NCBI RefSeq assembly: GCF_030384885.1 | Contig: NZ_CP128613.1 | Source of the DNA: Escherichia coli | GTDB taxonomy: Bacteria > Pseudomonadota > Gammaproteobacteria > Enterobacterales > Enterobacteriaceae | Length of the DNA stretch: 64,000 nt | Strand: one strand, 5' to 3' | Part shown: in pieces, positions 39,518-39,552 of the stretch | How the letters are laid out: the number at the start of each line of letters is the position of its first letter | Numbering within the stretch: the first letter of the stretch is position 1 | Program-made: the position numbers and the translations under genes | The notes under the pieces: generated by a model | What the model was told of the DNA's origin: nothing | The model's database searches: none | Seen by the model: only the letters and a program-made list of their open reading frames with translations

Positions 39518-39552
39518 CGTACTGTCAGAGAAATCAGTGCTCTGACAGTACG
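39518..39552. other. Perfect 13-bp inverted repeat (hairpin) 3' of yncL
   Basis: cgtactgtcagag - aaatcagtg - ctctgacagtacg; no clear U-tract on either strand. Confidence 0.5.

Follow-up and report, generated by a model that had tools for sequence, protein, structure and literature searches.

The hairpin that follows yncL in Escherichia coli is real, conserved, and ordinary: it forms the stable 3′ end of the yncL transcript in essentially all E. coli and is unrelated to the low-GC insert located beside it in the strain analyzed here. It probably acts as the 3′-terminal protective stem-loop of the short, abundant, sigma-S-linked, and Rho-terminated yncL mRNA. The hairpin belongs to a class of elements that has already been described, and its 3′ end is already contained in two public tables; no paper discussing the yncL hairpin itself was found. 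The term "window" denotes the whole 64-kb stretch of DNA that was analyzed, and the coordinates of the relevant features, together with the arms of the hairpin in related taxa, are collected in Table 1.

Table 1. Features of the yncL-patD region in the window, and hairpin arms (5′ arm / 3′ arm) in the taxa compared.
Feature	Position	Strand	Sequence or description	Basis
yncL CDS	39400-39495	+	31-aa stress-response membrane protein; TGA stop at 39493-39495	ORF list and RefSeq annotation
Spacer, yncL stop to hairpin	39496-39517	+	22 nt; 21-41 nt in other taxa	
yncL hairpin, 5′ arm	39518-39530	+	CGTACTGTCAGAG; covariation with the 3′ arm in Escherichia and Citrobacter	sequence
yncL hairpin, loop	39531-39539	+	AAATCAGTG; sequence and length free to vary across taxa	
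yncL hairpin, 3′ arm	39540-39552	+	CTCTGACAGTACG; covaries with the 5′ arm	sequence
C-rich, G-poor untranslated tract	39553-39672	+	candidate rut (Rho-loading) region	composition
Equivalent of the mapped yncL RNA 3′ end	39555	+	K-12 sequence identical up to 39571	Term-seq of K-12
Left junction zone	39572-39602		haplotypes with and without the insert homologous but diverged	alignments
Imperfect direct repeat, left copy	39582-39602		AACATTATCCTTAATATTTAC	alignments
Low-GC insert	~39603-40937		33% GC; missing from K-12 and ~79% of E. coli genomes	
CatB-related O-acetyltransferase gene, in the insert	39895-40704	-		ORF list
Imperfect direct repeat, right copy	40928-40949		AACATTTAACTTAATGTTTAAC; overlaps the patD stop	alignment
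patD stop codon	40938-40940	-		ORF list
Arms, E. coli			CGTACTGTCAGAG / CTCTGACAGTACG	
Arms, divergent E. coli			ACGCACTGTCAGAGA / TCTCTGACAGTGCGT	
Arms, E. whittamii			ACACACTGTCAGAGAG / CTCTCTGACAGTGTGT	
Arms, E. albertii			TCCACAGTCAGAG / CCCTGACTGTGGA; 4 compensated positions versus E. coli	
Arms, Citrobacter			CTGGCAGAGAGA / TCTCTCTGCCA	

Structure and genomic setting of the hairpin

The yncL gene is identified by RefSeq annotation at the identical locus of strain 2013C-4282 and in K-12, and by the Pfam family PF28073:YncL on homologues. The initial annotation of this DNA had described a perfect 13-bp stem with a 9-nt loop at 39518-39552, lying 22 nt past the yncL stop and lacking a U-tract, and each of these observations was borne out: the arms are 100% complementary, the spacing is as described, and the 8 nt on the 3′ side of the stem, CAAGAUCA (UGCUGCGU on the opposite strand), contain a single U. 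Stem GC content is 54%, the U-tract of a canonical intrinsic terminator is lacking, and a consensus terminator scan called no intrinsic terminator at the hairpin position. Among the perfect hairpins of the window this is the longest, and a stem of at least 13 bp arose in 0/100 Markov shuffles. Folding of the hairpin by itself gives -20.5 kcal/mol and that of its 85-nt context -29.7 kcal/mol (z = -3.9 versus shuffles), and the reverse strand of the hairpin folds nearly as well, at -19.7 kcal/mol. In the minimum-free-energy fold of the E. coli sequence, an outer helix of 8-10 bp, GAUUUUGC/GCAAGAUC, is added for a total of ~21-23 bp, and this outer helix is interrupted by an asymmetric internal loop of 8-9 nt. 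An Rfam search at a permissive E-value gave no match at the hairpin. A promoter-like match (CTGACA-16-CATACT) overlapping the 3′ arm was dismissed as chance level, with 5 such sites found versus 8.4 expected.

The gene order in this E. coli is curA-mnaT-ydcZ-ydcY-ortT-yncL, followed by an insert of ~1.3 kb and then patD. K-12 lacks the insert, and its yncL and patD converge on a 96-nt spacer carrying the identical hairpin 22 nt past the yncL stop and 39 nt past the patD stop. With a 61-nt query centered on the hairpin, the element was found in 5,411/5,426 complete E. coli genomes, and the match reached into the insert side in only 1,146 of the hairpin-bearing genomes. A half-hairpin query matched a median of 1 place per genome (5,411 genomes); the two places per genome returned by the full palindrome most likely arise because this sequence also matches its own opposite strand. 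A dispersed repeat family of the REP/BIME type was considered and ruled out by this single-copy behavior and by the lack of an Rfam match.

Haplotypes with and without the insert are identical through 39571, diverged from 39572 to ~39602, and unrelated beyond. The hairpin therefore neither marks nor creates the insert junction, because it lies 20-50 nt inside sequence shared by both haplotypes, and no second copy was found at the other end of the insert. Accordingly, the placement of the hairpin at the edge of the low-GC insert in the initial annotation was only approximately right, and its suggestion of a recombination site marking the insert boundary is contradicted: a single hairpin occurs in nearly all genomes irrespective of the insert, and the insert has an imperfect direct repeat of its own. 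The comparison with strains lacking the acetyltransferase insert, which had been proposed as a check, likewise gave a hairpin present without the insert, K-12 included.

Several further features of the junction were observed. The direct repeat flanking the acetyltransferase insert is imperfect and ~21 bp long, and the K-12 junction resembles the left half of one copy fused to the right half of the other; because of this appearance of joined halves, genomes without the insert could have lost it by a deletion between the two copies, rather than representing the ancestral state. A ATTATCCTTAATAT motif is shared by Citrobacter, ~40 nt past its yncL hairpin. Approximately 8/31 positions of the left junction zone differ between haplotypes with and without the insert, with identity upstream, and this divergence suggests that the junction may exist as two old alleles. 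Insert alleles are ~7% divergent among themselves (strains E29 and FDAARGOS_1059 versus the window). No counterpart of the insert or its acetyltransferase was found between yncL and patD in Citrobacter, Superficieibacter, or E. albertii. The acetyltransferase gene has an imperfect stem-loop of its own, GUUUGCAA...UUGCAAAC (~39807-39852, minus strand, ~-22 kcal/mol), which lies 40-85 nt past the stop of the gene and is likewise without a U-tract.

The RNA 3′ end and the Rho-sensitive region in K-12

The hairpin corresponds to 1517042-1517076 of MG1655 (NC_000913.3), where yncL is on the minus strand. Term-seq has located a minus-strand 3′ end at 1517039, with 75,265 reads in LB at OD 0.4, 536,300 reads in LB at OD 2.0, and a third listing in the same file (Adams et al., 2021, PMC7815308, Supplementary file 1). 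When checked on NC_000913.3, this position is an A, 3 nt past the last base of the stem. Furthermore, a "Primary" yncL terminus at 1517026-1517043, with a dominant position at 1517034/35, was reported in the TRS study (PMC10687069), which gives the yncL hairpin -21.6 kcal/mol and a longest U run of 2; the dominant position is 7-8 nt past the stem and equivalent to 39559-39560 of the window. The 3′ end mapping proposed in the initial annotation has thus been answered by published data, which put the yncL end at the hairpin. The TERMITe supplements contain no entry for the hairpin site. All of these transcript data come from K-12, and the insert-bearing strain is represented by sequence equivalence only.

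A Rho termination region has been reported at 1516753 on the minus strand (Adams et al., PMC7815308, Supplementary file 2), that is, on the same strand and 286 nt downstream of the 3′ end at 1517039. Downstream/upstream reads at this position are 9/220 without and 72/106 with bicyclomycin, corresponding to a Rho score of 16.6 (p = 5e-21) that is computed on 800-nt windows (PMC7815308). Adams et al. counted Term-seq ends at most 500 nt from a Rho region as Rho-associated and described Rho-terminated RNAs as processed by 3′-5′ exonucleases (PMC7815308). The Rho-sensitive RNA probably represents yncL read-through, a link drawn across these 800-nt windows; against this, the bicyclomycin-induced reads could come from antisense promoters inside patD. 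On the yncL strand of the window, the C/G ratio is 3.4 across the 60 nt past the hairpin and exceeds 2 out to 120 nt, compared with 1.09 across the whole window; in K-12 the bias is modest, with a ratio of 1.9 in the initial 60 nt and of 1.2-1.8 in the 300 nt that follow. A rut-like bias of C over G has been described for the Rho-dependent class of protective 3′ stem-loops (PMC6061677).

Transcription of the opposite strand and the regulatory setting of yncL have also been documented. The pair patD-yncL is included in the ExcludonFinder list of convergent pairs with overlapping transcription; no patD-strand 3′ end was found in the spacer (1517000-1517099) in the Term-seq tables or the TRS data, and patD is probably poorly expressed there. 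A weak "orphan" Term-seq 3′ end with 848 reads is present at MG1655 1517357 (+), equivalent to ~39237 on the minus strand of the window; it lies just upstream of ortT in the ortT-yncL divergent region, near a ACGCGCGCAAATATGCGT hairpin followed by T-rich sequence. The Salmonella orthologue of yncL is annotated as the sigma-S-dependent sRNA STnc1110 (PMC5437024), which resembles the yncL transcript at the gene level, being the same gene, short, sRNA-sized, and encoding YncL. In RIL-seq and TRIC-seq papers, yncL mRNA is a partner of the sRNAs RprA and KilS.

Conservation and covariation in related enterobacteria

The yncL loci of related genera were gathered via PatD synteny, exact YncL variants, and an exhaustive HMMER search. 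Every Escherichia and Citrobacter locus carries a hairpin 21-32 nt past the yncL stop without a U-tract. Covariation was assessed in an alignment of 12 sequences from ~5 lineages, a small sample, in which 86.5% of cells are paired compared with 31-47% when the 3′ partner is slid, and two-sided changes occur in 7/16 pairs compared with 0-1 in the slid controls; the covariation score was reached in 0/500 shuffles. Within this range of 12 sequences and ~5 lineages, the stem thus carries the compensatory substitutions of a structured RNA under selection. The central CAGAG...CTCTG is invariant across the alignment, and the loops in other taxa are 3-11 nt long and unrelated in sequence. Stem pairing amounts to 166/192 cells on the sense strand versus 170/192 on the opposite strand (G·U versus A·C comparison); because the stem pairs equally well on both strands, covariation alone does not single out the yncL-sense RNA, and the strand is assigned from the position of the mapped 3′ end and from the linkage of the hairpin to yncL. 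Outside E. coli, the outer helix GAUUUUGC/GCAAGAUC is not kept and shows no compensatory changes, with 6/8 pairs in E. whittamii and E. albertii and 3-6/8 in Citrobacter. The loop has two common alleles in E. coli, AAATCAGTG and AAATCAACT, which are three adjacent substitutions apart. Each was found on backgrounds with and without the insert, so that recombination must have taken place between loop and junction.

Beyond these two genera, the hairpins found at this place in Superficieibacter and in another enterobacterial assembly (L101) are different ones, with no clear U-tract. In a Klebsiella-like lineage, a canonical A-tract/stem/U-tract terminator stands in place of the yncL hairpin at the same distance from the stop, and 4 U are found in the 8 nt past the stem in E. 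whittamii and one Superficieibacter. The hairpin stays by yncL while its downstream neighbor varies: patD, the acetyltransferase insert, IS1 with an intimin-like gene, HTH/GNAT genes, or DUF421. The patD gene of E. albertii is far from the hairpin and has its own canonical U-tract terminator, followed by an intimin/invasin-like (IAT_beta) gene. An IS1 copy was observed ~100 nt past the yncL hairpin in E. albertii; this arrangement of IS1 and patD was read from loci L090 and L091 (1597-2431) and L011 (3923-4981). These arrangements suggest that the interval past the hairpin is an insertion hotspot with cargo differing in every genus examined. In E. coli SY033, an IS3-family element (locus L003, 3133-4361; window position ~39507) lies ~12 nt past the yncL stop; this insertion splits yncL from its hairpin and provides a natural mutant for the role of the hairpin.

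Proposed role of the hairpin and alternative explanations

A protective 3′ stem-loop would arise at yncL in three steps. RNA polymerase would transcribe through the hairpin, since the U-tract needed for release of the transcript is lacking. Rho would then load on the C-rich, G-poor untranslated RNA just past the hairpin and terminate transcription some hundreds of nt further, antisense to patD in K-12 and presumably inside the insert in the insert-bearing strain, where the same mechanism is likely to operate. Finally, the 3′-to-5′ exonucleases PNPase and RNase II would trim the tail until blocked by the 13-bp stem, leaving a precise and stable yncL 3′ end a few nt past the stem, which would protect the abundant mRNA. 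Such trimming and the stabilizing effect on yncL mRNA are what the protective 3′ stem-loops of Dar and Sorek (2018, NAR, PMC6061677) would predict. The yncL hairpin shares with this class a stable stem-loop without a U-rich tract (the tail is CAAGAUCA, with a longest U run of 2), a steady-state 3′ end directly after it, a bias of C over G just downstream, and a bicyclomycin-sensitive region farther on along the same strand; it is placed in the class by its structure, 3′ end, and Rho region, and the exonuclease part is presumed by analogy (PMC6061677). The RNA-processing or stabilizing element that the initial annotation had offered as one option is hence the reading favored by the abundant 3′ end 3-8 nt past the stem, the Rho region, and the covariation.

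Termination at the hairpin itself was another option in the initial annotation, which had named a U-tract-independent terminator, and this stands insofar as the hairpin defines the yncL 3′ end. A non-canonical intrinsic terminator, with release at or just past the hairpin, possibly Nus-aided, and Rho only mopping up read-through, would suit the precise and very strong 3′ end 3-8 nt past a stem of -20.5 kcal/mol, the canonical terminator at the same distance from the stop in the Klebsiella-like yncL locus, and the 4 U in 8 nt of E. whittamii and one Superficieibacter; canonical intrinsic terminators similarly consist of a stem-loop shortly past the stop that yields a precise 3′ end. Nevertheless, it is unlikely. 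E. coli RNA polymerase requires a U-tract for hairpin-driven release, and the yncL hairpin, unlike canonical terminators, has neither a U-tract (1 U in 8 nt, longest U run 2, with the consensus scan silent) nor an upstream A-tract, and its 13-bp stem and 9-nt loop are atypically long. Moreover, bicyclomycin raises same-strand read-through 16.6-fold, to a downstream/upstream ratio of 0.68 that is ill-fitting for an efficient intrinsic stop, and because the read-through is sensitive in this manner instead of Rho-independent, release is indicated further downstream through Rho. Termination at the hairpin is conceivable as an ancestral role, given the canonical terminator that occupies this position in the Klebsiella-like relative. 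Considerable doubt also attaches to a shared bidirectional 3′ end module of a patD-yncL excludon, in which the palindrome would protect or terminate either convergent transcript. The fold of the reverse strand (-19.7 kcal/mol), the equal pairing on both strands across taxa, the listing of patD-yncL as a convergent overlap, and the position of the K-12 hairpin 39 nt past the patD stop with no other structure between are all in keeping with such a module. The SEnd-seq work of Ju et al. in 2019, cited in PMC7815308, is reported to have described bidirectional terminators between convergent genes, and the K-12 hairpin is like them in that one palindrome, able to fold on either strand, occupies the 96-nt spacer where the two genes converge. 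In bidirectional terminators, flanking A- and U-tracts make both directions work; the yncL hairpin, unlike them, is without such tracts and has a documented 3′ end on the yncL strand only. The lack of a patD-strand 3′ end at 1517000-1517099 is weak evidence against the module given the probably poor expression of patD, and two further observations also speak against it: the patD gene of E. albertii ends at a separate canonical terminator, remote from the hairpin that accompanies yncL, and the acetyltransferase gene of the window is followed by a stem-loop of its own at ~39807-39852. It is similarly doubtful that the element is a two-strand palindrome whose preservation by selection sets the inner limit of a hotspot where the acetyltransferase cassette, IS1, IS3, and other genes have repeatedly inserted in different lineages.

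An RNase III site, in which the outer helix GAUUUUGC/GCAAGAUC would extend the 13-bp stem by stacking and the mapped 3′ end would be a cleavage product, is very improbable. It would make use of the ~21-23 bp of the E. coli minimum-free-energy fold, in which the 3′ end at +3 falls within the outer helix, and an array study (PMC3082872) indicates an altered abundance of yncL mRNA in RNase E and/or RNase III mutants; the outer helix, however, is unconserved outside E. coli without compensatory changes and is broken by the asymmetric internal loop of 8-9 nt. The slightest probability of all is left to a site acting at the level of DNA, whether an operator whose palindrome binds a dimeric protein, or a recombination or attachment site that marks the insert boundary or created it. 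Such a site would be compatible with the perfect palindrome lying in the DNA close to a variable region, with its invariant CAGAG...CTCTG center, and with the lineage-specific cargo just downstream (acetyltransferase insert, IS1, IS3, other genes), and yet this reading is largely refuted by the distribution of the hairpin: it is single in 5,411/5,426 E. coli irrespective of the insert and is absent from the other end of the insert, and it neither coincides with the junction, which lies 20-50 nt off with its own direct repeat, nor correlates with the insert. In addition, the arms covary rather than conserve their sequence, and a fixed protein-binding geometry is incompatible with an arm spacing that varies from 3 to 11 nt. 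The REP/BIME 3′ stabilizers are comparable to the yncL hairpin as extragenic palindromes between convergent genes that are able to block 3′-5′ exonucleases, and differ from it in that the yncL hairpin is single-copy, has no Rfam match, and is not known to resemble the REP consensus.

The significance of the hairpin beyond annotation is little. As a protective 3′ stem-loop, it provides a clean, covariation-supported example of the Rho-associated class and a caution against taking palindromes near islands for recombination sites. It explains how the small, highly expressed stress transcript of yncL can end sharply at its 3′ side although it lacks a classical terminator. Furthermore, no selected base-paired element of the yncL transcription unit lies beyond the hairpin, and for this reason the variable region always starts just past it.
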